A stretch of 64,000 nucleotides of DNA from a phage. The stretch lies in sequence record PZ386957.1. The stretch is one strand, 5' to 3'. This document shows positions 14,699 through 64,000 of the stretch, in pieces (the first letter of the stretch is position 1; each line of letters opens with the position of its first letter). The notes under the pieces are model-generated. The model saw only the letters and a program-made list of their open reading frames with translations, was not told where the DNA came from and searched no databases. A program made the translations under genes and the position numbers.

Positions 14699-14890
14699 TC
14701 ACTTATCGTTAAGAAGTTCTAAAACTTTCTGTCGTACTTTGTCAATATTAGTTGATTCAAAAACTGTACGGTATCCCCAGCTTTGACCGTATGATCGCGA
14801 GCAATCCCCATATCCCCATTGTTCAACCTGATAGTATTCAAGGAATGGGTGTTGCCGAACTATGATACCATCACGATTAAAAATTACCAT
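14699..14890 (-). CDS. hypothetical protein (63 aa)
   Basis: ORF track; preceded by the conserved AGAGGATTATATT-ATG style leader. Confidence 0.4.
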   Translation of the reverse strand: MVIFNRDGIIVRQHPFLEYYQVEQWGYGDCSRSYGQSWGYRTVFESTNIDKVRQKVLELLNDK

Positions 14891-14912
14891 AATATAATCC
14901 TCATGTCAAAAC

Positions 14913-15206
14913 TTATCTTCGGTTGTAATTCTGCCACTTTCGGTAATACTGCTTGTAAACCTGTTTTTCGTTTTCGCCATCTTTACTATACATGTTATCT
15001 ACCATCAAGTCAATAAGACCTTCCGGTGTCTGGTAGTTACCCGCTCGGATAAGTTCTTTAATTAAAGTGTCCTGATGATCTTTGTATACTACGTTAATGA
15101 TGGTCTTTTCTGCTTTCTTCGTCCCGATCATCCGGTGATTAGCTTTCATTGCATCCCACCAATCTTTTGTGATCTTCATGCTATTGAATTTCATAGTTAC
15201 TTGCAC
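14913..15206 (-). CDS. hypothetical protein (97 aa)
   Basis: ORF track; overlaps downstream gene start by 10 nt. Confidence 0.4.
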   Translation of the reverse strand: MQVTMKFNSMKITKDWWDAMKANHRMIGTKKAEKTIINVVYKDHQDTLIKELIRAGNYQTPEGLIDLMVDNMYSKDGENEKQVYKQYYRKWQNYNRR

Positions 15207-15961
15207 CCGTACTGGTCAATGTATGTTCTTGAATAATTTTTATGTACTTCTAAGCGAATCATATCTTGATTATCACGCCACACATAATATTTTTTGTTAT
15301 CCACTTGACCTTCATATTGCATAGCACCATTCTGATGCGTCACGGTTTTTGTTTTTGCTTTATGTGCGTTATAATTATCACGATACACAAATTCAATAAT
15401 TTCCCCGTCTTTTACTTTAAGTTTAAGTTCACCAGAGTTATAACGAGGATAACCAGGGTCTTTAACTACTTTTGTTTCTACCCCGTCGTGGATTTCCCAT
15501 TCATAGTGAACATCGCATTGTAATGTCATATCGCCTGTAAATCCTTTTGGTTTCTCTTCAACCTTCGGTTCTTCCACTACCTTTTCTTCCTGCTTTGGTT
15601 GTTCTTCAACCTTCACAGAAGTCTCTGAATCGCTCTCTGGCGATGTTTCTTCTTTAGGTAATACATTCATCAAGTTTTGGATTTGAGCGTTATACACAGC
15701 TTCCAGTGGCTGAATCTGCCCGATATTGATCATTGTATCACGAACAGTTTTATTCCAGTTGCGTTGCTCTTGTTTCAGAGACGGATCAATCTTAACAGCC
15801 TTAACATATACTTCATGGAGTTTAGAATCCAGTGCGGAGATTGACTCATTAGCACAAATAAACTTCTCTGATTTGGTAGTAGCCTTAGTGCAATCGAAGG
15901 ACGCAGCATTAGCACCGAAAGCAGTAGCAGAAAGAACTATAGCAGCGATAATGTTTTTCAT
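15197..15961 (-). CDS. secreted protein with N-terminal DUF1311 / LprI-like (lysozyme-inhibitor family) domain
   Basis: Signal peptide MKNIIAAIVLSATAFGANA; then SFDCTKATTKSEKFICANESISALDSKLHEVY...QRNWNKTVRD, the C..C...LD..L...Y...QR.W...RD pattern of DUF1311; Lys/Glu-rich linker; C-terminal beta-rich domain. Confidence 0.6.
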   Translation of the reverse strand: MKNIIAAIVLSATAFGANAASFDCTKATTKSEKFICANESISALDSKLHEVYVKAVKIDPSLKQEQRNWNKTVRDTMINIGQIQPLEAVYNAQIQNLMNVLPKEETSPESDSETSVKVEEQPKQEEKVVEEPKVEEKPKGFTGDMTLQCDVHYEWEIHDGVETKVVKDPGYPRYNSGELKLKVKDGEIIEFVYRDNYNAHKAKTKTVTHQNGAMQYEGQVDNKKYYVWRDNQDMIRLEVHKNYSRTYIDQYGCK

Positions 15962-15989
15962 AATATATTCCTCAGTGTTTTGTCTTGAT

Positions 15990-16024
15990 GGGAGTATCTT
16001 ACTACTCCCTTAATCCGGTGTCAA
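15990..16024 (-). promoter_or_regulatory. early sigma70-type promoter with inverted repeat around -10 (PeSL-like)
   Basis: Minus strand TTGACA-17 nt-TAAGAT; GGGAGTA/TACTCCC inverted repeat flanks the -10; AGGAATATATT ATG follows. Confidence 0.65.
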
Positions 16025-16031
16025 CTACTTT

Positions 16032-16187
16032 TTAAATTTCTTCTACAGTAAAGTCTTCAATGTTGTTGTGCTCGGAGAACGTTGCCAGACCAGCATCCCA
16101 CGCATCATCCTCAGAGAAGAATACACCATAACGTTCATATCCTTTAGCGCCTTCAAATTTAACCATTAATTTGTGAGTATGTTTCAT
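16032..16187 (-). CDS. hypothetical protein (51 aa; start moved to internal Met with RBS AAGGAGAATC)
   Basis: Track ORF 16032..16250 would overlap the promoter; internal ATG at 16187 has strong SD. Confidence 0.4.
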   Translation of the reverse strand: MKHTHKLMVKFEGAKGYERYGVFFSEDDAWDAGLATFSEHNNIEDFTVEEI

Positions 16188-16218
16188 TTTGATTCTCCTT
16201 CGTTGTCTTGATGAGTTC

Positions 16219-16247
16219 ATTGTAGGGGATCGGCGATCCCCTGTCAA
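16219..16247 (-). promoter_or_regulatory. early sigma70-type promoter with palindromic spacer
   Basis: TTGACA-GGGGATCGCCGATCCCC-TACAAT on minus strand. Confidence 0.6.
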
Positions 16248-16257
16248 CAACTATTTT

Positions 16258-16470
16258 TTAATTTTTACCCGCTAGTGCATTAATACGCATTTTCTGAATA
16301 GCCATGATCTGGCTTACTGCTTCTTCTTTACGTTCTTGTGTGATAACGTGACCAGATTCCGCAAACTCCCCCGCAACATCTTCTACAATCTCGCGAACTT
16401 GAGAACGTCCAAAGATGCGGTTTCCTTCGTAGCTCATAAACTCGGTCACTACTTGCTCAATAGATTTCAT
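16258..16470 (-). CDS. hypothetical protein (70 aa)
   Basis: ORF track; RBS AAAGGAGAATCATC before ATG. Confidence 0.45.
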   Translation of the reverse strand: MKSIEQVVTEFMSYEGNRIFGRSQVREIVEDVAGEFAESGHVITQERKEEAVSQIMAIQKMRINALAGKN

Positions 16471-16495
16471 GATGATTCTCCTTTCGTTTGGTATG

Positions 16496-16529
16496 GGAGT
16501 ATCTTACTACCGACGACCTTTGGCGTCAA
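16496..16529 (-). promoter_or_regulatory. early sigma70-type promoter (TTGACG-17-TAAGAT)
   Basis: Minus strand TTGACG, 17-nt spacer, TAAGAT, then ACTCCC. Confidence 0.6.
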
Positions 16530-16718: not shown

Positions 16719-16980
16719 GAGCGCGTGTCTCTGCGTCTTCCCATGCTTGATTCATTACCGCCGTGAAAACATATTCTAAAGTATCATCTTTCGCAAATCC
16801 AAAGATCTTAGACGGGATATCTTCAATTGCTACTCCAGCAACTTCTGCATTACGCGCTTGGCAATAATGCAACTCTAAGTTATCGAGATAACGACCGCCT
16901 AATTTCTCCATATCATCCCAGCATTTCCAATAGCCTACTTTATCTGCGATTGCTAACACTATGCTGTTTTCGTTGTTCAT
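16708..16980 (-). CDS. hypothetical protein (90 aa; start moved to internal Met)
   Basis: Internal ATG at 16980 preceded by AGGAGAATCAAAG; track start 17046 would overlap the promoter. Confidence 0.45.
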   Translation of the reverse strand: MNNENSIVLAIADKVGYWKCWDDMEKLGGRYLDNLELHYCQARNAEVAGVAIEDIPSKIFGFAKDDTLEYVFTAVMNQAWEDAETRALDW

Positions 16981-17014
16981 CTTTGATTCTCCTAGTTCGT
17001 TTCGGTATGTGTGT

Positions 17015-17043
17015 ATTATGCAATGTTGGATTCTGGAAGTCAA
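17015..17043 (-). promoter_or_regulatory. early sigma70-type promoter (TTGACT-17-CATAAT)
   Basis: Minus strand TTGACT, 17-nt spacer, CATAAT. Confidence 0.6.
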
Positions 17044-17057
17044 CAACTTTTTTCAAA

Positions 17058-19391: not shown

Positions 19392-19393
19392 TA

Positions 19394-21262: not shown

Positions 21263-23371
21263 TTAAAATTTAACATTCTTAACCAGTTTCATAAAGTCTT
21301 GTGCGCGTTTGTCGTTATGTAGAATACGATACCAGTTATCTACAATATCATACAGTAACGGGCTATTCTCTTTAAACTTCGCACAGACTGCTTTAATTCG
21401 TTCGTTTGCTGCCGTGAATTTTTCATCACAGATCTTTTTAGTTTCTTCGTCCATAATCCAACGAGTACGAAGGAGTAACTTGGAAACCTCTTTATTATAA
21501 TGACGACCGTACAGTCTGTCAATAAATTCTGGAATACAGCGTTCTAATTCATCGTCATGATACAGCATAGTGATCACGCCCAGATATTCGCCATACCCCA
21601 GATGGTTGGTCTTAACCTTCTTAGCCAGACCAGCCAGCTTACCGCGAACAAATTCTAGCGCACATTCCAGTTGTTCGTCAACGAGATATTTTTGTGTCTC
21701 GTTACGGGTAATAATATACTTTGTTACCCCGAAGTAGTCAAGCGCCTTGTGTAAGGTATCTTCATTGTAAATCGATTGACGGCTGCGGCTTTCAAATGCA
21801 TCACCTACACGGAACATATGCAAACCGGACAGTTCGCGGATCTCAGCCGCTTTCATGTGATGGCTGGTTTGGTGCCAATCATCACCAATCTTTTCCATGA
21901 TATACACGTTAGGCAGCTTAGGAGTCGTTTCACGCTGTGTACGCTCGGTCTTCTCCGGCTTAACTGCTTTAGCACGCAGATCATCGGCCTCAGACACTTT
22001 AATCACGGTCATTTCCGATTCATCATAATACTGTTTGATATACTCGAAAGTCTCCATGTGTTTTTCGTTGCTCTGACGGAACACCAGTACTTTTTTATTG
22101 ATGCCGTATTCCTGGACCATGCCGTTAAGAGTCAGTGCACGCAATTTCGGTTTATCGGTATCATCAATTACACACAGAATATCTTCTTTATGAATCCATA
22201 CAAAGTGCGTAATGTTGTATTGACTGCTAACGAAAGCAGGGCGCAATTTGCTGATCGTGTGTCGAGTACGATACAGAGTATACACTTGACCTTCTACGTC
22301 ATTAGGTGAATCTTTACCAGCATTCACAAACTTATTATAGATTTCTACCGGGTCATCCCACTGTCCGATCTTACCCATCTTGCTAATAATATTACGTTGA
22401 GTCGATGAATACTCGCTCATAAATTGCGCAAGTTTACGCTCTGTTTTAATGTTGGCGATCTTCTCTTTAACCTTTTCCAACATCATTTCATTGATTTCTG
22501 CAATGCGTTTTTCGATGTTCGCTTTAGTCTCAATTGACAAGTGAACTTCTTCACGCGATGGCATCAGGTCCAGATCACCTAACTCGAAATTGATGTAAAT
22601 GGTCTGGTGCTGGCGGTTTACAGCTTCTAACCATGTCCCGCGAACATATTCATACGGGATCGGATACTGGATCTTACCCATGATTGCATATACCACGTAG
22701 GAATCGTTATCACGTCCATCACAAACATAATAATTATCAAAGCTAGGGAAATAATTAATTTCGATTGCATTGATATTAGGTTTGTGTTCCCCAAAATGAC
22801 GCAGTACAAATTGCGCTTCTCGATGCCATGTCTGAATGTCTTTTTCTTTCACTGGAATAGTGATTTTCAGACCATTGTCTTCATCGGTCGGTTCGTCGAA
22901 AATCTGCACCATTTTCGGCATAGAGTTTTGCACAAATGCCGTAAAGCCATAAGCGCGACCATTGTAATAGTTTACGATTGTAAAGGTGTCGGTGTAGCTA
23001 TACGCAGATTTCGCACCTAAACCAAAAGATCCAATATAATCATTAGTCTGGTCTTTTGTTGATTCAAAGTAAACCGTAAACAGTTTTTCTAATTCCTTCT
23101 TAGATACAATGCCAGTACCATAGTCACGCACAGAGAAATAAGGTTCAATTGCGGTAGGCAAATGAATATCAAACGGACGATCTAAGGTTCCGGCTTCTTT
23201 GTGAGTGTCGGTAGCATTGCATGAATACTCACGGACGCAAGCACGCTCACAATATTGATAAGTGTTCTTAGAAAGCACCATAAAAGCCTTGCTGCTTGCT
23301 TTCAGAGAAAAATCAACCGCACCGCTCAGATCACTGCCAAATACTTCTTCATTATCAATATGCATTTTCAT
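21263..23371 (-). CDS. rIIA: RIIA protein (GHKL-type ATPase domain)
   Basis: 702 aa; SVRDYGTGI, DYIGSFGLGAKSAYSYTDTFTI, YGFTAF and overall architecture match remembered T4 rIIA. Confidence 0.88.
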   Translation of the reverse strand: MKMHIDNEEVFGSDLSGAVDFSLKASSKAFMVLSKNTYQYCERACVREYSCNATDTHKEAGTLDRPFDIHLPTAIEPYFSVRDYGTGIVSKKELEKLFTVYFESTKDQTNDYIGSFGLGAKSAYSYTDTFTIVNYYNGRAYGFTAFVQNSMPKMVQIFDEPTDEDNGLKITIPVKEKDIQTWHREAQFVLRHFGEHKPNINAIEINYFPSFDNYYVCDGRDNDSYVVYAIMGKIQYPIPYEYVRGTWLEAVNRQHQTIYINFELGDLDLMPSREEVHLSIETKANIEKRIAEINEMMLEKVKEKIANIKTERKLAQFMSEYSSTQRNIISKMGKIGQWDDPVEIYNKFVNAGKDSPNDVEGQVYTLYRTRHTISKLRPAFVSSQYNITHFVWIHKEDILCVIDDTDKPKLRALTLNGMVQEYGINKKVLVFRQSNEKHMETFEYIKQYYDESEMTVIKVSEADDLRAKAVKPEKTERTQRETTPKLPNVYIMEKIGDDWHQTSHHMKAAEIRELSGLHMFRVGDAFESRSRQSIYNEDTLHKALDYFGVTKYIITRNETQKYLVDEQLECALEFVRGKLAGLAKKVKTNHLGYGEYLGVITMLYHDDELERCIPEFIDRLYGRHYNKEVSKLLLRTRWIMDEETKKICDEKFTAANERIKAVCAKFKENSPLLYDIVDNWYRILHNDKRAQDFMKLVKNVKF

Positions 23372-23385
23372 AATATAATCCTCAA

Positions 23386-23654: not shown

Positions 23655-23849
23655 TTATACATTTTCAATCACCCATTGCAGATGGGCTTCTGCGTCAACC
23701 AGTTCAGCGCGGCTTTTCTCTAAGCACTTGCTGTATTCTTTACGTTCCCAATCAGCAATTTCGTTATTCAGGACTTCTTCATAGTAAGCAATTACGCCTT
23801 TCAGGTCTGAAACTTTACGGCTTGCCAGTTCGATGTAATGGTTACGCAT
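23655..23849 (-). CDS. hypothetical protein (64 aa)
   Basis: ORF track. Confidence 0.4.
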   Translation of the reverse strand: MRNHYIELASRKVSDLKGVIAYYEEVLNNEIADWERKEYSKCLEKSRAELVDAEAHLQWVIENV

Positions 23850-23887
23850 TTTGATTCTCCTACTTGGTATCTCGTTTCGATGGGGAC

Positions 23888-23916
23888 ATTATGATATATC
23901 CCCGATCCAGTGTCAA
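23888..23916 (-). promoter_or_regulatory. early sigma70-type promoter (TTGACA-17-CATAAT)
   Basis: Minus strand TTGACA, 17-nt spacer, CATAAT, flanked by GGGGA/TCCCC. Confidence 0.55.
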
Positions 23917-24289: not shown

Positions 24290-24815
24290 TTATGATTGCA
24301 TCCAATCACGGCGTAAACTTGGATCATCGCCGTAGAGCATATCGAATAGCTCTTTGTAATTTTCTGGTAAAGTGATAATTTCCGTAACTGGTTCGTTAAT
24401 CACCTTGTGATAGTCTGATTCAGTCAAAGATGCCAACCCTTTGATGTATCGAATGTTATAACCTTTGATGTTATCACGGTCGGCTTCAAAGTCGTCAAGG
24501 CTATAGTACCAGCGTACATCATCACCTTTCTTTGGTTCCGCAATGATAATAGGTGTTTTCACAAACTTAATTCTACCTTCCTCGAACATTTCAGGCCAGC
24601 GAGCAAAGAAAGAAATAAGAGACGGTTTAATAGACCCTAAGCCAATAATCTCGATGTAAAGTTAGTTAGCCCGAAGGCTAACCATCGGTATCTGCGTCAG
24701 TCATTATCGCGATGTTTTTATACATTGTCGTTGGAGTCCGACGACGGCGTACATTCGTTTGCGCTTTGTATGCTACCATGTTCACATTCTGTGTGTCGAT
24801 TTTCTTTAATTTCAT
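24290..24815 (-). CDS. 60: gene 60 topoisomerase II subunit (GyrB C-terminal-like) with programmed translational bypass (coding gap)
   Basis: Segment 1 (24815..24681) encodes MKLKKIDTQNVNMVAYKAQTNVRRRRTPTTMYKNIAIMTDADTDG then TAG; after a 37-nt gap the frame resumes at GGC 24643 as LGSIKPSL...RYIKGLASL...DWMQS (track ORF 24290..24589). Both halves align with remembered T4 gp60 either side of its hop. Confidence 0.8.
24644..24680 (-). other. translational bypass (hop) coding gap with take-off hairpin
   Basis: Take-off GGT (24683..24681) followed by UAG and hairpin AGCC-UUCG-GGCU, as at the T4 gene 60 take-off site; landing GGC at 24643..24641. Confidence 0.75.
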
Positions 24816-25650
24816 CGATATACCTCACTAATTCTTCGTCATTATATGGATTATAACCATCTTTAAATCTGTCAAACATCTTAACGACCGATTTTCTAGG
24901 ACAGCTAAGGTTTAACGCTTTATGACATTTAGCCGCGCCAGTAGCTTTAAATCGATTAGGATCGTAGTTTGACACAAACCAATCATAAATGTCAATCGTG
25001 TGGATAATCGCTTCTTTTGGTGTTAATGGTTGTTTATACCATTTCATGCTACGCATTACAGCAGCACCAGCAAGAGACGCTTTTCTAATTAATTCTTTGT
25101 TGTGTTTGTTTATTCCGTAGAACTCACCTGATAGAACAAGCGGATCATCGACCGCTAATTGTCTACGTTCGCCTTTATCGTTGATATAGATTGTTCTGCC
25201 TTTTGCTTTCTTATTATCAAAGTGTCGGCCTTTATTCAGTCCTACATAAAGATCCTTGTTTTGTTTGTATTCCTCTTTAGAAATTATAACACATTTACCA
25301 TCACTGACGCGTTTAACAGACAAACGACCTACCATCATTTCTTTAGAGAAGTTGGAAACTACTGTTCTATGTTGTTCTCTCGCGAATTGGTACATTGCAC
25401 CTGTCTTATATTTTCCGCTATTTGTCATGCGGTTTAAGGCGTAGTGCATTTTTCTGTTGTTATAAATCTTGGTTAACAGTATATGAGCAAGAAAGTGCTC
25501 TCTATATGTAAACGAAACAAGATTGGAATCGTCATCACTCCCACCCATAGATTTGGGTAGGATGTGATGAACTTCGATACCTTTATCACGAACGAGACCT
25601 CGTAACCGGCCTTTTTCTACTAGTTGGTTATAGATCTTTTGATAATTCAT
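24718..25650 (-). CDS. HNH homing endonuclease (MobA-like) inserted between gene 39 and gene 60
   Basis: 310 aa; EVHHILPKSMGGSDDDSNLVSFTYREHFLAHIL is an HNH motif; 4-nt overlap with gene 39 stop; 3' end overlaps gene 60 segment 1 in another frame. Confidence 0.8.
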   Translation of the reverse strand: MNYQKIYNQLVEKGRLRGLVRDKGIEVHHILPKSMGGSDDDSNLVSFTYREHFLAHILLTKIYNNRKMHYALNRMTNSGKYKTGAMYQFAREQHRTVVSNFSKEMMVGRLSVKRVSDGKCVIISKEEYKQNKDLYVGLNKGRHFDNKKAKGRTIYINDKGERRQLAVDDPLVLSGEFYGINKHNKELIRKASLAGAAVMRSMKWYKQPLTPKEAIIHTIDIYDWFVSNYDPNRFKATGAAKCHKALNLSCPRKSVVKMFDRFKDGYNPYNDEELVRYIDEIKENRHTECEHGSIQSANECTPSSDSNDNV

Positions 25651-27185
25651 AACATTCTCTTAACCTCCACCCATTCACCGTTAATCAATACTTCATCGTT
25701 AATATTAACAATAATTTTCTCACCTTGCAAGTCTAGCTCGAAAAACTCACCATCTACCATTTCTTCGGAGGTGGGAACACCAAACTGTAAACCAGTGATC
25801 GCCATAATGTTAAAAATTTCGGCATTTTTAACAATTGCAGTTTCTGGTTGTCCCCACGTTGTAAGAGTTTTACCTCGCAACGGGAAACCGCCATGTAAAT
25901 CTTGATCACGTACAGAGATCAGATAGTTGATCGCGGAATCACCTTCCGTCAAAAACAGGGTAGTTTCTGCGTCAGTTCCAATAAGGTTAGCTTTAACGTG
26001 TTTTGCTACCTTAGCCCGTTTTGCTGCCTTTGCTGCCTTAGTCGCTGCCGCTTTATCTGCTGCCTCTTTGCGTGCCAATACGACCGCGATAATAGGCATG
26101 ATAATATTTTCTTTCTTCGCAATGACTTTAGCCAGCTTTTTAAAATCCAGATCAATGTGACGCTTGATATCACCAGTAGGGTTAGTCAAACGTTCTTTCG
26201 TCTGGGAATCAAAACGCAAGTTAGGCAATTCACGAACAATCAAAATACAGGTCAAACCAGACTTAACCGCAGCTTTAGTAACATCAACTTTATATTCTTT
26301 CTTGATTCGTTTTACAATTTCCTCACATAGATCATCTGTTACATAGTCTACGTGTGTTCCCCCGTTTTTGGTAAACAGACCATTAGCAAAGGATACTGAT
26401 TTAAAACCTTCACCTTCAACCGCAGGAACTAGAGCAAGTGAAAAGTTTTTATCCTCGATGACAAACGGATCATCATTGTAGAGTTTAGCATACTCTTTGA
26501 ACTTGCTGGTGATTCTCTTTCCGTTAAACTTAAACGTGATTTTAGGAAAGATAACACTCAAAGAATACAGACGGTCACAAATCACATCTGCAATCTCTTG
26601 TGACATAATCATCCCTTCAAAATGATCAAAATCAGGACAAAATGTAACCTTTGTTCCCTTTAATTTTGATGGCTTAGATGACCATGTAATATTTTCCGCA
26701 CCGTTGGTACATTGTACGGTTAATTCATTCTCGCCATCGCACGTTACACCCGTAAACCATGCGGAGAAGTATGCAGTTAACGCGCTGCCGATCCCATTCA
26801 TTCCCATAGTAACGCGGTTGGTATCATCAAAGTTAGATCCGGCTTTAGCTCGTGTCCATGCAGCGACTGGTTGCGGGATCTGTTTTCCTTCCGGTGTCGT
26901 TACGATATGTTGAGGAATACCGCGACCATTATCCGTTACCGATACAATGTTATCTTGAATATCTACGCTGATTACATTAGCAAAATCAAAATTTGTTCGG
27001 ATTGCTTCGTCTACAGAGTTGTCGATGATCTCATCGATGATTTTAACTAGCCCAGGAACATATGATACAGTTGTCCATTTACCATACAGGAATCTATTAT
27101 GTGATTCGTATGTAGTAGACCCGATATACATCGATGGTCTCTTAAGGCAGTGAGCACGATCATCTAAGAGTAAAAATTCACTCAT
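25647..27185 (-). CDS. 39: DNA topoisomerase II large subunit gp39 (GyrB-like ATPase/Toprim)
   Basis: 512 aa; IIDNSVDEA, DNGRGIP, GKQIPQ, GLTCILIV and Toprim region typical of GyrB-type ATPase, as in T4 gp39. Confidence 0.92.
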   Translation of the reverse strand: MSEFLLLDDRAHCLKRPSMYIGSTTYESHNRFLYGKWTTVSYVPGLVKIIDEIIDNSVDEAIRTNFDFANVISVDIQDNIVSVTDNGRGIPQHIVTTPEGKQIPQPVAAWTRAKAGSNFDDTNRVTMGMNGIGSALTAYFSAWFTGVTCDGENELTVQCTNGAENITWSSKPSKLKGTKVTFCPDFDHFEGMIMSQEIADVICDRLYSLSVIFPKITFKFNGKRITSKFKEYAKLYNDDPFVIEDKNFSLALVPAVEGEGFKSVSFANGLFTKNGGTHVDYVTDDLCEEIVKRIKKEYKVDVTKAAVKSGLTCILIVRELPNLRFDSQTKERLTNPTGDIKRHIDLDFKKLAKVIAKKENIIMPIIAVVLARKEAADKAAATKAAKAAKRAKVAKHVKANLIGTDAETTLFLTEGDSAINYLISVRDQDLHGGFPLRGKTLTTWGQPETAIVKNAEIFNIMAITGLQFGVPTSEEMVDGEFFELDLQGEKIIVNINDEVLINGEWVEVKRML

Positions 27186-31012: not shown

Positions 31013-31073
31013 AATTGATTCTCCTTAGTTGGTATGTGTGTATTATTGTCTATCTGGTTTGTGTTGTCAACAC

Positions 31074-34110: not shown

Positions 34111-34140
34111 AATATAGTCTCCTTAGAGTTTCATTATAGA

Positions 34141-36553: not shown

Positions 36554-36575
36554 AATATAATCCTCTCTAGATATG

Positions 36576-42130: not shown

Positions 42131-42131
42131 T

Positions 42132-48496: not shown

Positions 48497-48523
48497 AATA
48501 TAACCTCCAATCAATTTTTAGAG

Positions 48524-49578: not shown

Positions 49579-49668
49579 AGTCTCTTCCTCTCTTCGTTTT
49601 CGATGCTCTCACTATATCATAGAAAAATAAAAAGGGAAACCCCTTTCAGAGTCTCCCTTATAAAGCCA

Positions 49669-52221: not shown

Positions 52222-52526
52222 TAGAAACCCTTACGTCGTGCTTTCTGGCATTTCTTGATCGCCTTATCCGAAATTTCACGTTTCGGGGCGATCTCTTTAA
52301 CGCCAAATGCTTTCACTCCAAATTCAGAAAGAATATATTCTACCATCAATTCACGCACACGCGCTTTACCGATATTCACACCATTATTTTTCAGATATTG
52401 CTGGCCTTCTACTTGCATAAGGTCCAGATCTGCATCAGTGATATTAATCTCTTCCATGCGTCCAAATCGAGAGTAAACCATGTGTGCGATTGCATTGTGT
52501 ACTAACATAATATATTCCTCACTCAA
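52221..52526 (-). CDS. hypothetical protein (101 aa)
   Basis: ORF track; start overlaps upstream ORF stop. Confidence 0.4.
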   Translation of the reverse strand: MSEEYIMLVHNAIAHMVYSRFGRMEEINITDADLDLMQVEGQQYLKNNGVNIGKARVRELMVEYILSEFGVKAFGVKEIAPKREISDKAIKKCQKARRKGF

Positions 52527-53421: not shown

Positions 53422-54255
53422 TTACCAACCTCGCTCTTTACCAATCAAAAATTCAACTTCACGACGTTTAATGTCTTCTTGAAGGTCTTTAATCTTCTGG
53501 CGATCTTGCATGATTTCGTCCATTTTGTCAAGTGCTGCGATGAAATCATCGAAACGTTCAAAGGTTTTACCTTCATTTGCTTCGCCAAATTTAACCATTG
53601 TCAGGCCGTAACGACTACTAAACAGACGTTTCAACTGTCCAACGACCTTAGAATCATCGTTCACCTTTTCTTCTGGTTCTTTCACTGTTTCAACTTCACG
53701 AAAATATTTTCGTTCAAGCCCAACAAACCACACAGCATCAACATCATCATCAACACCCGCCGAATGAGGATTAAATGTTCCACAAGCATTATCATTATTG
53801 ACGTCGATCATAGTAACGAAACCAACAGAATCAACGGAAGATACCGTAAAAGTCTCATCTCCTATCCAATCAGCAATTTTACGGTTGATATTAGAACAGT
53901 GAGAAAACGTCACTTTTGCGTTTACATCTTTCCAAGTATAAGTTTTACCAACTTCCCATTTAGGAGGAACTTCTTCAACTTCACGAAAGAATTTTCTATC
54001 GAATGGACTAAAGAAATATGTTGATGTCCAAATGTCTTTTCCTGTAGCAGTTTTCGCCGTATGATAAACACCGTCTAGCTCTATTGCATCAATCCAACCG
54101 TTACCCTCGATCTCGATGATGGTAAATGGCTTGTCACCAATAGCTACACTAATATCGCTGTTAAGTGGAGAAAGACAACCGTCTACGTTAGTAATAAACT
54201 CAGTTTTAGCGTTTTCGTCTTTCCAAGTGTAAGTTTTACCAATTTCCCATTTCAT
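53422..54255 (-). CDS. member of repeat-containing paralogous family (two tandem repeat units)
   Basis: KWEIGKTYTWKDENAKTEF...RKFFREV and KWEVGKTYTWKDVNAKVTF...RKYFREV; preceded by AGAGGATTATATT-ATG. Confidence 0.55.
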   Translation of the reverse strand: MKWEIGKTYTWKDENAKTEFITNVDGCLSPLNSDISVAIGDKPFTIIEIEGNGWIDAIELDGVYHTAKTATGKDIWTSTYFFSPFDRKFFREVEEVPPKWEVGKTYTWKDVNAKVTFSHCSNINRKIADWIGDETFTVSSVDSVGFVTMIDVNNDNACGTFNPHSAGVDDDVDAVWFVGLERKYFREVETVKEPEEKVNDDSKVVGQLKRLFSSRYGLTMVKFGEANEGKTFERFDDFIAALDKMDEIMQDRQKIKDLQEDIKRREVEFLIGKERGW

Positions 54256-54267
54256 AATATAATCCTC

Positions 54268-54732
54268 TTAACCGATTTTATCAAGTTCGTTTAATGCTTT
54301 CTCTGCTTCCTGTATAGCTTGCACCCTTTCCGGCATTTTGTCAAGAAAATCTTTCAACTCTTCAAAACTGGAGATATGACGCAAGGCGTTAGCACCGATA
54401 GCCGCATGTGATTTGCATTCAAAGCGAATTTTATAATTATCCATCGCCAACTTGAGAAGATCAATTAGTTTAGATTCTTCTGGAATAATAATTTCTTCAA
54501 ATCTGCTACGGTCATGATCCAGAAACCAACAAGATAGACCTACATCGGTTGAACTCATATAAGTTCCATCATGAAGATATACAGACCGCACGTATCCTTT
54601 TTTCGCATCAACCGACGCAACTTTAAACGGTAATCTCAGATATTTCAAATAATCAACATCATACCATTTAAAAAATTGGTTTGCATCTTTTACATCTTTC
54701 CACGCATAGGTCTTACCAGCTTCCCATTTCAT
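54268..54732 (-). CDS. member of repeat-containing paralogous family
   Basis: MKWEAGKTYAWKDVKDANQFF... plus conserved C-terminal helical module (FLDKMPERVQAI). Confidence 0.5.
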   Translation of the reverse strand: MKWEAGKTYAWKDVKDANQFFKWYDVDYLKYLRLPFKVASVDAKKGYVRSVYLHDGTYMSSTDVGLSCWFLDHDRSRFEEIIIPEESKLIDLLKLAMDNYKIRFECKSHAAIGANALRHISSFEELKDFLDKMPERVQAIQEAEKALNELDKIG

Positions 54733-55787: not shown

Positions 55788-55923
55788 TTACCCCGAACTC
55801 GTTTACAATCTGCGCTTTATAGTAACCACCGCGAGATGCTAATAGATAAGCTGGGCTTAGGTATTCGTATTCACGGATTTCTACTTGTGCGTTTTCAGTT
55901 TCCCAAATCAGTAAAGTCCACAT
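55771..55923 (-). CDS. hypothetical protein (50 aa; start moved to internal Met)
   Basis: ATG at 55923 preceded by AGGAGAATCAAAT and an upstream promoter. Confidence 0.35.
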   Translation of the reverse strand: MWTLLIWETENAQVEIREYEYLSPAYLLASRGGYYKAQIVNEFGVIEYEF

Positions 55924-55965
55924 ATTTGATTCTCCTGTAAAGTTGTATCTCGTCTTGATGAATAT

Positions 55966-55994
55966 AGTATAGGGGATCTCGCGATCCCCGTCAA
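55966..55994 (-). promoter_or_regulatory. early sigma70-type promoter with palindromic spacer
   Basis: TTGACG-GGGATCGCGAGATCCCC-TATACT on minus strand. Confidence 0.6.
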
Positions 55995-59089: not shown

Positions 59090-59584
59090 TTATTTTACCA
59101 GTTCTGCTAATTCTTTTTCCGCCGCTTCCAGTTCAGCTTTCAGTTGTTTGATCTCTTGTCGCTTCTTATTAGCGGCTTCCTGCTTACTATTTCGGATAAC
59201 CTGATCTAGATACAACTCCCAATCCTGAATATTTTTGATAATGTAGCCGTCAACATTAATTGGTCGGAGATTCAGTACAGCTTCCAGTTTAGTTGCAAAA
59301 ACTTTAATTGCTGGGGTGAAGTATTCATATTCGTTATCTTCAAACCAATAACCTAGACTTGCATTCTCAATACGAAGATGAAGTTTAAGATCAAGGTCTT
59401 TATCATCGGTATATAGGTCTTTTACACACCCCATAGAATTAACAACAACTTTAAAACGAATTTTATCTACACCACCAAAAACATCTTCAAGAATATCAGC
59501 AATTGAGCTATTAGCGCAAGATTGGTCGCTGAATGCGTCAAGGTTTTCTTTAGTTACAGTATACCAAACATCTTGTACCCACAT
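59090..59584 (-). CDS. hypothetical protein with C-terminal coiled coil (164 aa)
   Basis: ORF track; AGAGGATTATATT-ATG leader. Confidence 0.45.
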   Translation of the reverse strand: MWVQDVWYTVTKENLDAFSDQSCANSSIADILEDVFGGVDKIRFKVVVNSMGCVKDLYTDDKDLDLKLHLRIENASLGYWFEDNEYEYFTPAIKVFATKLEAVLNLRPINVDGYIIKNIQDWELYLDQVIRNSKQEAANKKRQEIKQLKAELEAAEKELAELVK

Positions 59585-59614
59585 AATATAATCCTCTCGT
59601 TGTTAAGTGGGAGT

Positions 59615-59642
59615 ATTATAGCATACTCCCTTCGCATGTCAA
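59615..59642 (-). promoter_or_regulatory. early sigma70-type promoter with inverted repeat around -10 (PeSL-like)
   Basis: TTGACA-16-TATAAT with GGGAGTA/TACTCCC flanking the -10. Confidence 0.65.
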
Positions 59643-60817
59643 GCACTAACTTTTTTCTTTACTGCTTTCACCTTCTGGCGAATTGCTCGAATCTCTTCGA
59701 TCTCTTTTTCAGTCTCTTTAACAATTTCTTTGCGATTCTGAATATCTGTATCGAGATTATCATCAAGTTTAGGCAGCATGTCAATCAAGAACTTTTTAAA
59801 GTCTTTCAGGTTTCGAATAACAGCACCTTCGCCCATTACCGCAACACCCACACCATCCGGCAGATCACCAAACAGCTTAACCAGTTCAGACAGATGATCA
59901 TGATCTTCTAGTGCTTCTTCCGGTTCAGATGGCAGTTCAACAAAGTTATAACGTTCATCATTGCTGATCAAGTGATACCAGCAAAGCCCGAAAGATTTCG
60001 GTGTATATTCTACACCATCAATTTCAACCGCGTCAACACTTCCATAATCATCTACTTTAGTTACCTTAAATCCTTGTCCCAGCTTTTGAACAATTTCAAC
60101 AACATGACTTGATACAGTTTCAGCGGTAAACCAATATGGCAAATTATGCTGATTTGGCTTGTAGCGTTCACCTACTTTAAATCTCTGACCATCCGCTTGC
60201 ATAGAATGAAATTGTTGTTTCGTGATTTCCGCGAAGTATTCAAATTCGCCACCATCAAACACACAAGCCCATTGATCACAAAAACGATCTGCCTTAACAG
60301 TTTCACCTTTCGCGGTGATCATGGTAGCTGATCCGTGCAATTCTTCTTCAACTAAAAAGCCATATTCGACAAAATCAACAAGTTTCATAGCTTCTTTGTG
60401 ATCTGGATCATGCTCTCCCCAGAATCGCTTAAATTCTTGCAAACCTTCTGGGGTAAACGAATAACATTTACCTTTTTCAAAGTAAGTCGGCATTGCATCC
60501 TCTTTCTTGTTCATCGCTTCGTATGCCTCTTTTGAGATGCGTTTAAAGTATTTACGCTCATTGTGCATAATCATAGTAGCCCAATAATCAACAATATCAT
60601 TAGCGGAATAAACTACATCTCCAGCTTCAATAGTAATAACATGACCGTGGTCATCTTTTTCTAATACTTTAAAGCCCTTTTCTACGATTTCAGCAACCCG
60701 AATATGACCACGGCGCGAAGCATCGGTCAGAATAATTGAATAGCGAGAAAAGTCTAGAAACTCATCTTTACCGCCTTCACGGAATGCATAGTAATGACCT
60801 TCAAAGAATTTAGCCAT
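59639..60817 (-). CDS. member of repeat-containing paralogous family (three or more repeat units plus C-terminal helical module)
   Basis: 392 aa; repeated units around NERKYFKRISKEAYEAM, GKCYSFTPEGLQEFKRFW, GFKVLEKDD, GFKVTKVDDYGSVDAVEIDGVEY; C-terminal LKDFKKFLIDMLPKL module. Confidence 0.55.
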   Translation of the reverse strand: MAKFFEGHYYAFREGGKDEFLDFSRYSIILTDASRRGHIRVAEIVEKGFKVLEKDDHGHVITIEAGDVVYSANDIVDYWATMIMHNERKYFKRISKEAYEAMNKKEDAMPTYFEKGKCYSFTPEGLQEFKRFWGEHDPDHKEAMKLVDFVEYGFLVEEELHGSATMITAKGETVKADRFCDQWACVFDGGEFEYFAEITKQQFHSMQADGQRFKVGERYKPNQHNLPYWFTAETVSSHVVEIVQKLGQGFKVTKVDDYGSVDAVEIDGVEYTPKSFGLCWYHLISNDERYNFVELPSEPEEALEDHDHLSELVKLFGDLPDGVGVAVMGEGAVIRNLKDFKKFLIDMLPKLDDNLDTDIQNRKEIVKETEKEIEEIRAIRQKVKAVKKKVSA

Positions 60818-60848
60818 AATATAATCCTCTCGTTGTTTAGATGGGAGT

Positions 60849-60877
60849 ATCTTACTACTCCCGTTTCATCATGTCAA
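60849..60877 (-). promoter_or_regulatory. early sigma70-type promoter with inverted repeat around -10 (PeSL-like)
   Basis: TTGACA-17-TAAGAT with GGGAGTA/TACTCCC flanking the -10. Confidence 0.65.
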
Positions 60878-61440
60878 GCGTTAAATGACTTTTGGATCTC
60901 TTTCAGTTCAGCTACTTTATCGGCGCTATATTTTGCTTGATGTTCCATGCGCTTAAGCTCACCTTTGATATAGGTTTCTAGCTTAGGTTTATTCTCAATC
61001 AGAAAATCTTTCAAGTCATCGGCATTTTTAAAGTATAGCTGATTATCAAAGCTAAAATCTTCCAGCGTCAAGGATACCAAAGAAGATTTCGCAAACAAGT
61101 TAATCAGATCTTCCAGAGATTCTTCTTTCTTAACTGGTTTCATTTCTTCAAACTGCTTTTTAGTGATGCGTTTAAAGTATTTGCGCTCGTTTGCAGCAAT
61201 CAGAACAGATGCACCTTCATACCCATGAGTTTCTACCAGATACACACGCCCCATCGCATCAACAGTGAGAACTTTAAAGCCGTTACAAAGCACGTCATAC
61301 AAGAACTTATTATGTTGCGGACATCGTTTGATAAATTCTGCGGCTGTTTCTGCACTACGGAAAGTGTAATAACGACCTCGTTCAAAAGCAGCATCATTTG
61401 AAGACTTAGCCGGATACAATTTATACGTTTTCTGTACCAT
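60874..61440 (-). CDS. member of repeat-containing paralogous family
   Basis: GRYYTFRSAETAAEF...GFKVLTVDAMGRVYLVE...NERKYFKRITKKQFEEM plus C-terminal LKDFLIENKPKL module; start moved to Met with AGAGGATTATATT leader. Confidence 0.5.
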   Translation of the reverse strand: MVQKTYKLYPAKSSNDAAFERGRYYTFRSAETAAEFIKRCPQHNKFLYDVLCNGFKVLTVDAMGRVYLVETHGYEGASVLIAANERKYFKRITKKQFEEMKPVKKEESLEDLINLFAKSSLVSLTLEDFSFDNQLYFKNADDLKDFLIENKPKLETYIKGELKRMEHQAKYSADKVAELKEIQKSFNA

Positions 61441-61454
61441 AATATAATCCTCTA

Positions 61455-61727
61455 TCATTTCACTAATTGAACAGCACGAAACAGAATGCGGTCACACGGA
61501 AGAAGCATAAATTCCCAACGCGGATCAAAGTCTTTAGCGGTATATGTTTTCCCATCAACCGAGATTTCACTTACATAACCAATAGGTGACACTTTAAGAA
61601 CAGTAAACCCATTCTTGATGACTTCGTAGGTATCTTTCAAACCTTCGTAGTCATCCTCTAGGAAGTCTTTACGTGCTTGCTCAGATTTAAAAACATAGGC
61701 CACACCGGATTTAAACATCTTACGCAT
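61455..61727 (-). CDS. member of repeat-containing paralogous family (single repeat unit, 90 aa)
   Basis: MRKMFKSGVAYVFKSEQARKDFL...GFTVLKVSPIGYVSEISVDGKTY; start moved to Met with AAGGAGAATCAACA leader. Confidence 0.5.
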   Translation of the reverse strand: MRKMFKSGVAYVFKSEQARKDFLEDDYEGLKDTYEVIKNGFTVLKVSPIGYVSEISVDGKTYTAKDFDPRWEFMLLPCDRILFRAVQLVK

Positions 61728-61757
61728 TGTTGATTCTCCTTCTTGATTAGATGGGAG

Positions 61758-61786
61758 TATTTTACTACTCCCATTTCTTATTGTCA
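61758..61786 (-). promoter_or_regulatory. early sigma70-type promoter with inverted repeat around -10 (PeSL-like)
   Basis: TTGACA-17-TAAAAT with GGGAGTA/TACTCCC flanking the -10. Confidence 0.65.
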
Positions 61787-61790
61787 ACTA

Positions 61791-62279
61791 CTATCTTAAT
61801 CTTTGTATAAATTGTTTCTTATACTTCTTCGTGATCTCTTCTCTTGTATCAGCGTCACAGTAATCGAAACCTTCTGCGTCCATAATAGCAACCATCTCCG
61901 CGCGTGTCAAGCGTGAAAATCGTTTTACTTTATCAACAGCATATTGAGGATGTAAATGATTGTTGGTGTAGTCTCCTTTGATGTAATTAACATAGTTTGT
62001 AGCCCAAACAACGAAATCAGCACCTAAAGCACCAACACCAAACCGTTTAAAGTCTCCGGTCAACGATCCTTCTAGGCGGTTGCAACACGAATGAAGCAAT
62101 CCCCTTACGCGGCCTTGCCCTTTACCATCTAGATCGTGGTCGTGGTCAAGATGGTTTTTGCTCATATCCTCAAAAAGTGGCAATTGACAAAGGGGGCAAA
62201 TGCCCCCCTGTTTTTCGAATAGTTCTTGTTTGTACTCTTTAGCACTCTTAGCAGTCAGTAACATAAATTCACCCTCCAA
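61791..62279 (-). CDS. 49: endonuclease VII (Holliday junction resolvase) gp49
   Basis: 162 aa; CPLCQ...NHLDHDHDLDG...GRVRGLLHSCCN zinc-binding/HNH-like core and C-terminal helix match remembered T4 endo VII. Confidence 0.9.
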   Translation of the reverse strand: MEGEFMLLTAKSAKEYKQELFEKQGGICPLCQLPLFEDMSKNHLDHDHDLDGKGQGRVRGLLHSCCNRLEGSLTGDFKRFGVGALGADFVVWATNYVNYIKGDYTNNHLHPQYAVDKVKRFSRLTRAEMVAIMDAEGFDYCDADTREEITKKYKKQFIQRLR

Positions 62280-62288
62280 AGAAGGTAT

Positions 62289-62582
62289 TTAACCATGAAT
62301 CTTGTTTTTGACTACAAAGGATCGGAACTCATCAAAGCCACCAATATAATCACCATCATAGAAAATCTGCGGCATGGTGGCAATAACTTCTACCCCTGCG
62401 CGATCCTGAATATCGGCAATGATAGAATCAATCTTTACAGGGCGACCGTTTTCGTCCACACCATCATTAACCGGAATGTAGATGTAAGGGATCTTACGCG
62501 CTTCACAAAGGCGCTTTGCATTCTGGCAATACTTACAGTTGTAACCTTCAAAACCAAAAATTTCTACCATGTTATACCTCAA
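62289..62582 (-). CDS. nrdC: thioredoxin/glutaredoxin NrdC
   Basis: 97 aa; CKYCQNAKRL active site and MPQIFYDGDYIGGFDEF match remembered T4 NrdC. Confidence 0.88.
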   Translation of the reverse strand: MRYNMVEIFGFEGYNCKYCQNAKRLCEARKIPYIYIPVNDGVDENGRPVKIDSIIADIQDRAGVEVIATMPQIFYDGDYIGGFDEFRSFVVKNKIHG

Positions 62583-63391
62583 TCTACGTTAGTTACATAA
62601 ACTTCTTGCGTATCAGAAGACTTGCCACCTGAACGATCTAGGCAATAGGTCTTATTCAACAGGACGCAGTTTAAATCATTCCGCTTGATAAAATCAAGCA
62701 AATGGTTGTTAACTTTCCCTTTGTGGTGAGTAACATTGCTTAATCCAAACTTAGTACCGCTAGACATTAATGATTCTATCCACATGTAGAATTTAATCTC
62801 TTCTTCTTCACTCCAGAACTTATTATATTCTGCCGACGTGATCCAATATGGCGGGTCCAAATAAACGAAATCACCGGGCAAGATCTCGATCTCGTCATAA
62901 CGACCAGACGTAAAATTGATTCGACCGTCTTTGTTTTCTTCTTTAAAATTCAGGACACGCTCTACCGCGTTTTCGTTAAAAGTCCGGCGACCAAAATTAG
63001 CATTAAATTCGCCCTTTCGGTTATGGCGGTTAATGTTGCTAAAACTATGCTGAATCAGAACAAACAGAGATAGCGGATCTGGATTCTCGTTATACTTCTT
63101 GCGGAATGCCATATAAGAATCTTTATCATCACGAGACAAACCATTCTCGGCAATAATCCGCTTGATCGTAGAAACCGGATCAGGGCACTCGTCAATCGCT
63201 TTGTAAGCATCAATTAAGCGGTGATCATAGTCATTAGCCAGAACATCCCCTTCGACGTACAGAGACACGCTCAAACCGCCACAAAAGGCATCGACAAAGC
63301 GGTTATAGTGCTTAGGGAAATACTTACTAACACCTGGCAATAACTTTTCCTTATTGCCAGTATAGGGAATTAAACCTAATGCTTTCTTCAT
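62579..63391 (-). CDS. dam: DNA adenine methyltransferase Dam
   Basis: 270 aa; AYTGNK-like N-terminus (PYTGNKEKLLP), RFVDAFCGGLSVSL (motif I), DFVYLDPPY (motif IV), YNKFWSEEEE match remembered T4 Dam. Confidence 0.9.
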   Translation of the reverse strand: MKKALGLIPYTGNKEKLLPGVSKYFPKHYNRFVDAFCGGLSVSLYVEGDVLANDYDHRLIDAYKAIDECPDPVSTIKRIIAENGLSRDDKDSYMAFRKKYNENPDPLSLFVLIQHSFSNINRHNRKGEFNANFGRRTFNENAVERVLNFKEENKDGRINFTSGRYDEIEILPGDFVYLDPPYWITSAEYNKFWSEEEEIKFYMWIESLMSSGTKFGLSNVTHHKGKVNNHLLDFIKRNDLNCVLLNKTYCLDRSGGKSSDTQEVYVTNVD

Positions 63392-63822
63392 TATCCCTTC
63401 CTCAAATAAGTTCTTTCAATTTCTACCAGTTCGAAAAATTCATCCCAATCACACGGAAAATTGCAGTTTCCGAAATGATCCTCTTTGTAAAGTTCTTTAC
63501 CGGATGGCAGCTTAATATCTGTTACGCTGTAGTATCCGCAACAATCGCAATCACCATCTGTATATTCTGTTTTGGTAGGAATATCCATCATTGCCAGATA
63601 CAAAGGTACATCGTCTTGCTCAAAGTTCATGTAACCTTCATGGTCGAATGAAACAAAGTTATCATCGCCACCGAAAGGGATATAGTGGTCATAATCGGTT
63701 ACAGGTTGACCGTGCAATTCCCATTCTACAATTTTAACATTACCGCTAAACTTGATACCCATAATTTCAACAAGAAAATGAGTATCGTCAATGTAAATCT
63801 TACTAGGAGTTGGATAAACCAT
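63391..63822 (-). CDS. hypothetical Cys-rich acidic protein (143 aa)
   Basis: ORF track; DGDCDCCGYY and GNCNFPCDW Cys clusters; leader GAGGATTATATA-ATG. Confidence 0.45.
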   Translation of the reverse strand: MVYPTPSKIYIDDTHFLVEIMGIKFSGNVKIVEWELHGQPVTDYDHYIPFGGDDNFVSFDHEGYMNFEQDDVPLYLAMMDIPTKTEYTDGDCDCCGYYSVTDIKLPSGKELYKEDHFGNCNFPCDWDEFFELVEIERTYLRKG

Positions 63823-63832
63823 TATATAATCC

Positions 63833-64000
63833 TCATATCTCAGAGAATAGAATCTCTGTTAGCTTCACTGACTGCTCTCTGAATGTTAGCGTATACTCGA
63901 AAGGAAAGTCAACACCCAATTTCAGAAGAGAATAGCCTACCGCCTCTTTATGCTTGTCGGTTAGGGCGATCCTAACCAATTCCCGTTGAATCTCTTTAGG
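63833..64000 (-). CDS. hypothetical protein, C-terminal fragment (5' end beyond window)
   Basis: Open minus-strand frame to window edge ending ...FREQSVKLTEILFSEI with stop at 63833; its stop abuts the RBS of the next gene. Confidence 0.3.
   Translation of the reverse strand, partial: PKEIQRELVRIALTDKHKEAVGYSLLKLGVDFPFEYTLTFREQSVKLTEILFSEI

Follow-up and report, generated by a model that had tools for sequence, protein, structure and literature searches.

Why do so many early genes of a T4-type phage begin directly behind almost the same few nucleotides? The question is raised by a stretch of phage DNA of 64,000 nucleotides (nt; sequence record PZ386957.1, hereafter "the window", which always denotes this whole stretch), in which a first, sequence-only reading had noticed near-identical leaders in front of numerous start codons. 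These leaders represent two words, defined here as class A, (A/T)GAGGATTATATT-ATG, and class B, AGGAGAATCA-n-ATG. Based on the sequence analyses described below, we favor with moderate confidence the explanation that they are two stereotyped ribosome-binding leaders of Krischvirus early-strand genes, with class B being linked to promoter-early stem-loop (PeSL) cassettes and to RegB, and class A being a free-standing preferred ribosome-binding site (RBS).

The window stems from an RB49-like T4-type coliphage (Krischvirus, Straboviridae) and is ~93% identical to RB49, where positions ~141,400-164,018 plus 1-41,343 form its counterpart. Identities of 90-95% were found between the last 14 kb of the window and 59 RB49-group phages (93.4% for RB49 itself). 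Tail-fibre genes on the plus strand are followed by a long minus-strand block of early and replication genes, whose members include rIIB, rIIA, 39, dda, 61, 41, 40, uvsX, 43, regA, 62, 44, 45, 46, 47, 55, nrdG, nrdD, 49, and dam. The full RB49 genome, reassembled with its 278 annotated coding sequences, was used as annotated reference. The 59 Krischvirus records cluster tightly, their next relatives lie at <72% identity, and conservation was compared only within this cluster and hence with little power.

Class A was searched for as CATAATATAATCCTCT with up to two mismatches, and the expected numbers were derived from shuffled sequences; matches on the plus strand correspond to sense sequences on the minus strand. 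The window contains ten class A copies, compared to 0.07 expected, and all of these matches are located on the plus strand (starting at 14888, 15959, 23369, 36551, 52506, 54253, 59582, 60815, 61438, and 63820). Seven exact class B copies (searched for as TGATTCTCCT) were found at 16190, 16473, 16984, 23852, 31016, 55927, and 61731 versus 0.17 expected. The TATATT-ATG core, CATAATATA on the plus strand, occurs 12 times where 1.26 occurrences were expected, each time at a gene start, and the shorter ATATT-ATG precedes 17 of the 91 genes in the window. Both words are confined to the early-gene strand; the 46 plus-strand genes, for the most part late genes, all lack them. Immediately next to each class A or class B copy lies a start codon that corresponds, in the alignment, to the start annotated for the RB49 orthologue. 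The sequence-only reading had placed its sites correctly to within 10 nt, with three of them (14881, 36541, and 54250) being off by 3-10 nt; it had listed five of the class B sites and missed those at 23852 and 31016 as well as the class A copies at 15959 and 52506. Its description of the downstream genes as unrelated applies to most of them but not to a group of four distant paralogues, three with class A and one with class B.

In the full RB49 genome, the exact sequence GAGGATTATATT occurs 11 times and always at an annotated start, and if one mismatch is allowed 20 of 21 occurrences lie at annotated starts. The same applies to 22 of the 24 occurrences of TATATTATG and to 26 of the 27 exact occurrences of GGAGAATCA. 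Since nearly all RB49 occurrences coincide with annotated starts, the motif is not equally frequent elsewhere; equal frequency away from start codons was what the sequence-only reading had itself named as speaking against its proposal. The claim that near-identical leaders are common to many genes thus holds far above chance and specifically for start codons, in the window as well as in RB49. The uniformity also exceeds what a Shine-Dalgarno (SD) sequence requires, as had been suggested: the spacer ATTATATT is present without any change in 11 of the 45 RB49 genes that have GAGG at positions -12 to -9, whereas a position-independent model predicts between 0.55 (motif genes excluded) and 2.6 (motif genes included) such genes. 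Mechanically called ORFs (open reading frames) begin upstream of the RB49-annotated start in 35 of the 91 window genes, including six of the 17 class A and class B genes. For all 17, the start defined by the motif is identical to the RB49-annotated start, which supports the earlier reassignment of starts to internal methionine codons.

The generic form of a strong RBS, as in the T7 gene 10 leader AAGGAGAUAUACAU-AUG, consists of a short purine SD and an A/U-rich spacer of 7-9 nt with few predicted base pairs, followed by AUG. Class A shares this form but stands out in that 7-10% of the genes in a single lineage have the very same 12-13-mer. A comparison with the syntenic 50 kb of T4 and RB69, which have the same host, showed that the most frequent 12-mer leader precedes two of 86 genes in T4, one of 93 in RB69, and seven of 91 in the window. 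As nothing comparable was found in the syntenic regions of T4 and RB69, the stereotypy is lineage-specific. A leader of the T4 type is GAGGAAAUU-AUG. In T4, the leaders of rIIA and gene 44 have an identical 18-mer in common, AATGAGGAAATT-ATG-ATT, which contains the gene 44 RegA operator sequence; no other 12-mer leader is found more than once in the first 50 kb of this phage.

All class B copies are located on the minus strand at the 3' ends of promoter cassettes. A sigma-70-type promoter lies upstream of all seven window copies and of 25 of the 26 RB49 copies, in RB49 usually together with a G/C stem-loop and with a CA-rich leader that is conserved (...ACACCCAUACCGAAACGAA..AGGAGAAUCAAA-AUG). 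The -10 element in the window ends 29-42 nt before the ATG, and an independent promoter scan recovers the same class B promoters. The window cassettes can be aligned from the AT-rich UP region to the ATG and carry the SD and the start codon at their 3' end. PeSLs ending in class B were found at 16185-16247 (AAGGAGAATCAAA-ATG, SD word 16190-16199, promoter 16247-16219, stem-loop GGGGATCGCCGATCCCC) in front of a 51-amino-acid ORF, at 23847-23916 (TAGGAGAATCAAA-ATG, SD word 23852-23861, promoter 23916-23888) in front of a 64-amino-acid ORF, at 55921-55994 (CAGGAGAATCAAAT-ATG, SD word 55927-55936, promoter 55994-55966, stem-loop GGGGATCGCGAGATCCCC) in front of a 50-amino-acid ORF, and at 61725-61787 (AAGGAGAATCAACA-ATG, SD word 61731-61740, promoter 61787-61759, stem-loop GGGAGTAGTAAAATACTCCC) in front of the p060 orthologue (90 amino acids). 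A degraded PeSL with a promoter-like site (16529-16501) occupies 16468-16529 (AGGAGAATCATC-ATG, SD word 16473-16482) and precedes a 70-amino-acid ORF. The remaining two copies terminate promoter cassettes, one at 16978-17043 (TAGGAGAATCAAAG-ATG, SD word 16984-16993, promoter 17043-17015) upstream of a 90-amino-acid ORF, with a terminator-like hairpin farther upstream at 17085-17063, and one at 31010-31070 (AAGGAGAATCAATT-ATG, SD word 31016-31025, promoter 31070-31042) upstream of srd (251 amino acids). The G/C stem-loop is present at the class B copies at 16187, 23849, 55923, and 61727 and at the class A copies at 15961, 59584, and 60817, and it is degraded or absent at the class B copies at 16470, 16980, and 31012.

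This arrangement is that of the PeSLs published for phages RB49 and phi1, which by definition have the SD and the start codon of the downstream gene at their 3' end (Arbiol et al. 2010, PMC2839356) and have been described as regulatory cassettes that are mobile (PMC2839356; Comeau et al. 2014, PMC4122927). Like PeSLs, the seven class B and three of the class A copies end a unit composed of an UP region, a TTGACA-N16-18-TAnnnT promoter, and mostly a G/C stem-loop, with small ORFs located downstream. Class B is therefore largely already known as the 3' end of published PeSL cassettes. As far as the parts consulted of these two papers go, they treat the SD merely as the end of the cassette and do not report the near-invariant SD-spacer word or a link to RegB (PMC2839356, PMC4122927).

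Such a link is nonetheless suggested by the class B sequence itself. The RegB/S1 target of T4 is the single-stranded 11-mer GGAGRAYARAA, in which C is not tolerated at position 5, 6, or 9 (Durand et al. 2006, PMC1702504; PMC3014915); its GGA is invariant, position 4 is G or rarely U, the optimum is GGAGAAUAAAA, and GGAU is cleaved solely when the strict A-rich consensus comes next (PMC1702504). The class B 11-mer GGAGAAUCAAA (GGAGAATCAAA in the RNA) fits 10 of the 11 consensus positions and, as required, avoids C at 5, 6, and 9. GGAG is present in every class B copy, and the subsequent AAUCAAA fits RAYARAA at six of seven positions, so that class B and the T4 sites have GGAG, A5, A6, U7, A9, A10, and A11 in common and differ by the C at position 8. 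Among the 36 RB49 11-mers with GGAG that score at least 10/11, 27 are located in start regions. Class B sites share with T4 RegB sites the location in intergenic start regions of sigma-70-driven early transcripts, their mean predicted unpaired probability is higher than that of other start regions (0.56 versus 0.49, P = 0.003), and RB49 encodes regB. Judged from this consensus fit, along with the unpaired state, the location in start regions, and the presence of regB, the class B SD sites probably double as RegB cleavage sites that inactivate early mRNAs. This link is plausible, and it was not found stated in the literature searched. Class A is predicted to be a poor RegB substrate and hence to be RegB-resistant under the T4 rules, since it lacks GGAG and its GGAU, followed by UAUAUUA, matches the RegB consensus at only seven of 11 positions.

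The ten class A copies, likewise on the minus strand, are more heterogeneous in their surroundings. Only three of them (at 15961, 59584, and 60817) belong to a clear PeSL. The first of these cassettes (15959-16024, motif 15959-15974) consists of a -35 element TTGACA (16024-16019), a -10 element TAAGAT (16001-15996), and a stem-loop GGGAGTA..TACTCCC, ends in the class A variant TGAGGAATATATT-ATG, and precedes the p262 orthologue (254 amino acids). The second (59582-59642, motif 59582-59597) has a sigma-70 promoter that matches at 12 of 12 positions (59642-59615) and a stem-loop GGGAGTAT..ATACTCCC, and the third (60815-60877, motif 60815-60830) has its promoter at 60877-60849; both end in exact class A and precede the p057 orthologue (164 amino acids) and the frd.2/goF-like orthologue (392 amino acids), respectively. 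The other seven copies are not PeSLs, as they lack a convincing promoter or stem-loop; no sigma-70-like match at all was seen for five of them, and weak 9/12-type matches, possibly due to chance, were seen for the two at 52508 and 63822. These seven precede the orthologues of p260 (TGAGGATTATATT-ATG, 14888-14903, 63 amino acids; no promoter within 100 nt), rIIA (TGAGGATTATATT-ATG, 23369-23384, 702 amino acids), gene 40 (AGAGGATTATATT-ATG, 36551-36566, 103 amino acids), gene 55.2 (variant TGAGGAATATATT-ATG, 52506-52521, 95 amino acids), p049 (exact class A, AGAGGATTATATT-ATG, 54253-54268, 277 amino acids), p059 (exact class A, AGAGGATTATATT-ATG, 61438-61453, 188 amino acids; no promoter), and p064 (variant TGAGGATTATATA-ATG, 63820-63835, 143 amino acids). 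The gene 40 copy is preceded by a promoter-like site and lies just past a terminator-like, G+C-rich hairpin with a T-run (~36576-36598). The remaining non-PeSL copies, such as those of rIIA and p059, directly follow the stop codon of the upstream gene, and their flanks share no similarity. The proposal of recombination-borne cassettes, made as an alternative in the sequence-only reading, thus stands for class B and for three of ten class A copies, which form the 3' ends of PeSLs, but not for the other seven. Upstream of the p260 copy, a remnant -35-like TTGAC abuts the SD. This leader (14904-14926) has a PeSL-type -35 context (AAGTTTTGAC; AAGTTGTTGAC in RB49) that runs straight into the class A SD with neither a -10 element nor a stem-loop, and it looks like a half-PeSL left by deletion or recombination.

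The 3' half of class A, (U)AUAUU-AUG, also occurs behind GGAG-type SDs, at genes 43, dc1, frd, and p038. The corresponding leaders in the window include AAGGAGACTATATT-ATG of dc1 (34108-34125), where a GGAG SD is combined with the class A 3' half, AAGGAGTTTATATT-ATG of the first cistron of gene 43 (41683-41700), and GGAGGTTATATT-ATG of the p038 orthologue (48494-48510), for which RB49, Sf20, and Skers have GGAGGTTGTT-ATG.

The occurrence of class A depends on the available space. None of 20 class A copies was found in an intergenic gap of <10 nt, whereas about half of the other genes overlap or nearly abut their upstream neighbor. Among the 47 RB49 genes with gaps of 10-30 nt, 12 carry class A, 13 carry GGTGA (extended complement of the anti-SD), and 22 carry other leaders. 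From this distribution we conclude that class A is the modal leader where the start region is free of coding constraint. The late promoter TATAAATA was found upstream of none of 20 class A and none of 30 class B genes, and the idea that either word belongs to a late promoter was rejected. In the literature searched, the literal words matched only unrelated primer sequences, and no description of class A, a ribosome-binding word specific to this lineage, was found there.

Comparisons among related genomes and among paralogues are informative about how class A persists. When a 50-nt query covering the p049 start was compared with the 59 Krischvirus records, two matched the window exactly and 57 differed by exactly two bases. 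The p049 leader read directly in RB49, Sf20, and Skers is GGGGAATATATT, whereas the window has exact class A; on these alignments, the window leader is a derived double change with both bases altered toward the consensus. Because this double change leads to exact class A, the word can be regained. Moreover, p049, frd.2, and p059 are paralogues with amino acid identities of only 23-32% and nevertheless have identical 16-nt class A leaders, and therefore leader identity appears to be maintained and not to be a remnant of duplication. A fourth paralogue, p060, has a class B leader. The four orthologues (53422-54255, 59639-60817, 60874-61440, and 61455-61727) share a repeated domain of ~50-130 amino acids at 23-34% identity, and two of them are named "goF mRNA metabolism modulator" in RefSeq. 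A residue of gene duplication was considered as the origin of the shared leaders and was rejected for most copies, as only these four genes are paralogous (23-34% protein identity). Sister genomes show variants of the word, namely GAGGATCATATT at rIIA in Sf20, TATACT at p059 in Skers, and TATATG at p064 in Skers. A scan of IMG/VR for the exact 15-mer GAGGATTATATTATG gave, among the matches listed, single matches on scattered contigs; as chance alone makes a 15-mer recur in a database this large, the scan carries no information on taxonomic breadth.

Taken together, the explanation that we favor runs as follows. Class B (AGGAGAAUCAAA-AUG) is the final ~15 nt of the PeSL cassette, in which the AT-rich UP region is followed by a sigma-70 promoter close to consensus, by a G/C stem-loop, and by a CA-rich, G-poor 5' untranslated region of 20-35 nt. 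The word would be copied and shuffled together with this cassette in front of small early ORFs, and RegB would cut its SD and thereby shut off the early mRNAs shortly after the onset of infection. Class A, (A/U)GAGGAUUAUAUU-AUG, has the 4-nt SD GAGG and an 8-nt all-A/U spacer that ends in UAUAUU and is followed by AUG. It would be used wherever a non-coding spacer of at least 10 nt exists, be it behind a cassette or right after an upstream stop codon. Selection for the word would keep or recreate its copies, with short-patch conversion as a possible contributor, and we infer that class A is translated with high efficiency.

Several observations weigh against this explanation. That the word is optimal for the Escherichia coli ribosome is insufficient as an account, because T4 and RB69 use the same ribosome without having it, and a phage-specific factor or a simple copying history may be behind the lineage specificity. 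A hand tally over four genomes gave ~5 polymorphic positions in 130 for class A and ~8 in 170 for the flanks; as word and flanks are similarly polymorphic, strong purifying selection on the exact word is not demonstrated. Class A leaders are also not more accessible than other start regions, with mean unpaired probabilities of 0.47 and 0.49, respectively. With regard to RegB, position 8 of class B is C where T4 sites strongly prefer A, and the consensus applied here is that of T4 while the RB49 RegB is among the divergent RegB sequences (PMC3014915). Finally, the RegB resistance of class A is not certain, since class A contains GGAU and the RB49 regB SD, GGAUAAUAAAA, has been reported to be cut by RegB (PMC3014915).

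The alternative that survives best, although we deem it unlikely, is that the words have no function beyond that of an ordinary SD and merely hitch-hike on recent PeSL shuffling and short-patch gene conversion, being too young to have diverged. Recombination at PeSLs is documented, and the crossovers were located between the -10 element and the SD or ATG (PMC2839356); class B plus three of ten class A copies reside within PeSL cassettes. One clear indel fits this pattern, as the RB49 ORF p004 is missing from the window and the junction (23861/23875) lies at a class B SD; the other window indels relative to RB49 are homing-endonuclease insertions. The PeSL-like -35 remnant that abuts the class A SD of p260 and the similar polymorphism of motif and flanks also agree with a copying history. 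However, the seven class A copies without a convincing cassette show no upstream similarity beyond the 13-16-nt word, and copying leaves both the restriction to free spacers of at least 10 nt and the exact spacing to the ATG unaccounted for. It is equally difficult to reconcile with three paralogues that have retained identical leaders at 23-32% protein identity and with the class B leaders, in which the SD with the next 7 nt is invariant and forms the least variable part, whereas the sequence next to it differs among copies and is not of constant length. A history of copying thus fits class B reasonably well and the cassette-less class A copies poorly.

Somewhat more doubtful is the possibility that class A is a translational operator, at which RegA or another phage RNA-binding protein would compete with the 30S subunit and co-repress ~20 early genes. 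A RegA-type site had been named as one possibility in the sequence-only reading. The window encodes regA (41768-42130), whose product is 65% identical to T4 RegA and conserves the RNA-binding residues K14, T18, R21, W81, and F106, although R91-T92 of T4 RegA are deleted. RegA sites are located between the SD and AUG or over the AUG and are A+U-rich and unstructured (PMC3014915), and the class A spacer AUUAUAUU consists of A/U at eight of eight positions, abuts the AUG, and provides the AUUAUG seen in the T4 rIIB and gene 44 operators. As the RegA proteins of T4 and RB69 already differ in their consensus obtained by SELEX despite being 78% identical (PMC3014915), a RegA with 65% identity could prefer AUUAUAUU. 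Like class A, RegA operators occur on many early genes; the class A word exceeds the position-independent expectation, and the strongest point for an operator is that class A is lineage-specific despite the same host ribosome. In contrast, the orthologues of the named T4 and RB69 targets 44, 45, rIIB, and dexA as well as regA itself lack class A in both the window and RB49. Class A has no 5' poly(A) tract as found in the T4 sites (PMC3014915), and its spacer alternates A and U. Known RegA operators lack clear sequence conservation (PMC3014915) and class A is far more uniform. Sister genomes tolerate variants of the word. As to structure, the mean unpaired probability of class A leaders matches that of other start regions (0.47 versus 0.49), which speaks clearly neither for nor against an operator. 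Another argument comes from regA, whose leader (42131-42144, GGUAAA-AUG-AUU) is identical in T4, whereas most other leaders differ between the two phages. Such identity would be expected if an autoregulatory RegA site had been conserved, and it suggests a T4-like RegA specificity, which class A fits poorly. The most frequent spacer hexamer of T4 and RB69 was also compared with each RegA SELEX consensus, but it is AATAAT in both phages (3-5 of ~90 genes) and gave no discriminating signal. In sum, the RegA-type operator is unsupported rather than refuted.

An extended form of this idea, which we consider slightly less probable still, holds that class A is the operator of a Krischvirus-specific regulon controlled by a shifted RegA or another protein, and that class A and the RegB-sensitive class B together constitute a two-channel timing system that partly replaces the MotA/AsiA middle mode. 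In line with such a replacement, no MotA or AsiA genes are annotated in RB49. A signal at the DNA level, with the perfect TATAAT in the class A reverse complement serving as an antisense promoter, is very improbable, because the conservation reaches into the SD and the distance to the ATG is fixed, which fits translation only, and because the plus-strand scan matches at three class A sites (23352-23379, 54235-54263, and 61420-61448; 10/12 each) have weak, non-conserved -35 halves in unrelated coding sequence and the total of promoter-like matches is near the shuffle expectation (37 versus 26.8 and 60 versus 50.3).

Apart from the leaders, the window differs from RB49 by split genes and endonuclease insertions. 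Gene 43, encoding the DNA polymerase, is split on the minus strand (37941-41715), with 1294 nt in the window where RB49 has 228 nt. An N-terminal cistron (40198-41685, 495 amino acids) is followed by a GIY-YIG endonuclease ORF (39377-40198, 273 amino acids), a short cistron (39210-39380, 56 amino acids) that has the KxxxNSxYG motif at its end (...KVLINSLYGA), a group I intron at 38994-39245 (RF00028, 52 bits versus a gathering score of 50, E = 3e-12), and the C-terminal exon, which extends down to ~37941. We take this layout to resemble the 43A / homing-endonuclease gene / 43B-intron arrangement of Aeromonas phage 25. A scan of the whole window against Rfam at the gathering threshold returned nothing, and the intron exceeded the gathering score solely in a local scan of 38700-39450, which indicates that the speed filters of large scans can miss real RNAs. 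Gene 39, encoding the large subunit of topoisomerase II, is split on the same strand (24290-27185) into parts of 512 amino acids (HATPase_c and DNA_gyraseB) and 99 amino acids (TOPRIM_C), which are separated by a 310-amino-acid ORF (24718-25650) with a weak HNH match below the Pfam cutoff (E = 6e-4). Here the window has 1138 nt compared to 66 nt in RB49, reminiscent of the T4 arrangement 39 / mobA / 60. Conversely, the window lacks the RB49 HNH endonuclease gene p040 (RB49 positions 26380-26934), with the junction (49575-49579) located exactly at the ATG of gene 47. The window gene 47 uses the leader that precedes p040 in RB49, and p040 in RB49 therefore sits between this leader and the original ATG. 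The tail-fibre genes 34-37 (1-12400, plus strand) are ~81-83% identical to RB49, with unaligned gaps at 9739-11246 and 11474-12039, compared to 87-96% identity in the rest of the window, a pattern that is typical of a host-range module.

For the annotation of RB49-like phages, the two words are very reliable start markers (22/24 and 26/27 occurrences at annotated starts in RB49) and resolve many cases in which the start of a small ORF is ambiguous. These results do not overturn current views of T4-type gene expression; they represent a modest refinement and not a new kind of system. Class A is an unusually uniform RBS. It might find use as a strong, portable RBS, or it might hint at a translational regulator specific to the lineage, and if the regulon reading were true, Krischvirus would possess a two-channel post-transcriptional timing system. 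If the class B sites are indeed RegB targets, the mobile PeSLs would carry a promoter, a terminator, an RBS, and an mRNA shut-off site, and would thus be complete expression modules that provide newly acquired genes with an off-switch.

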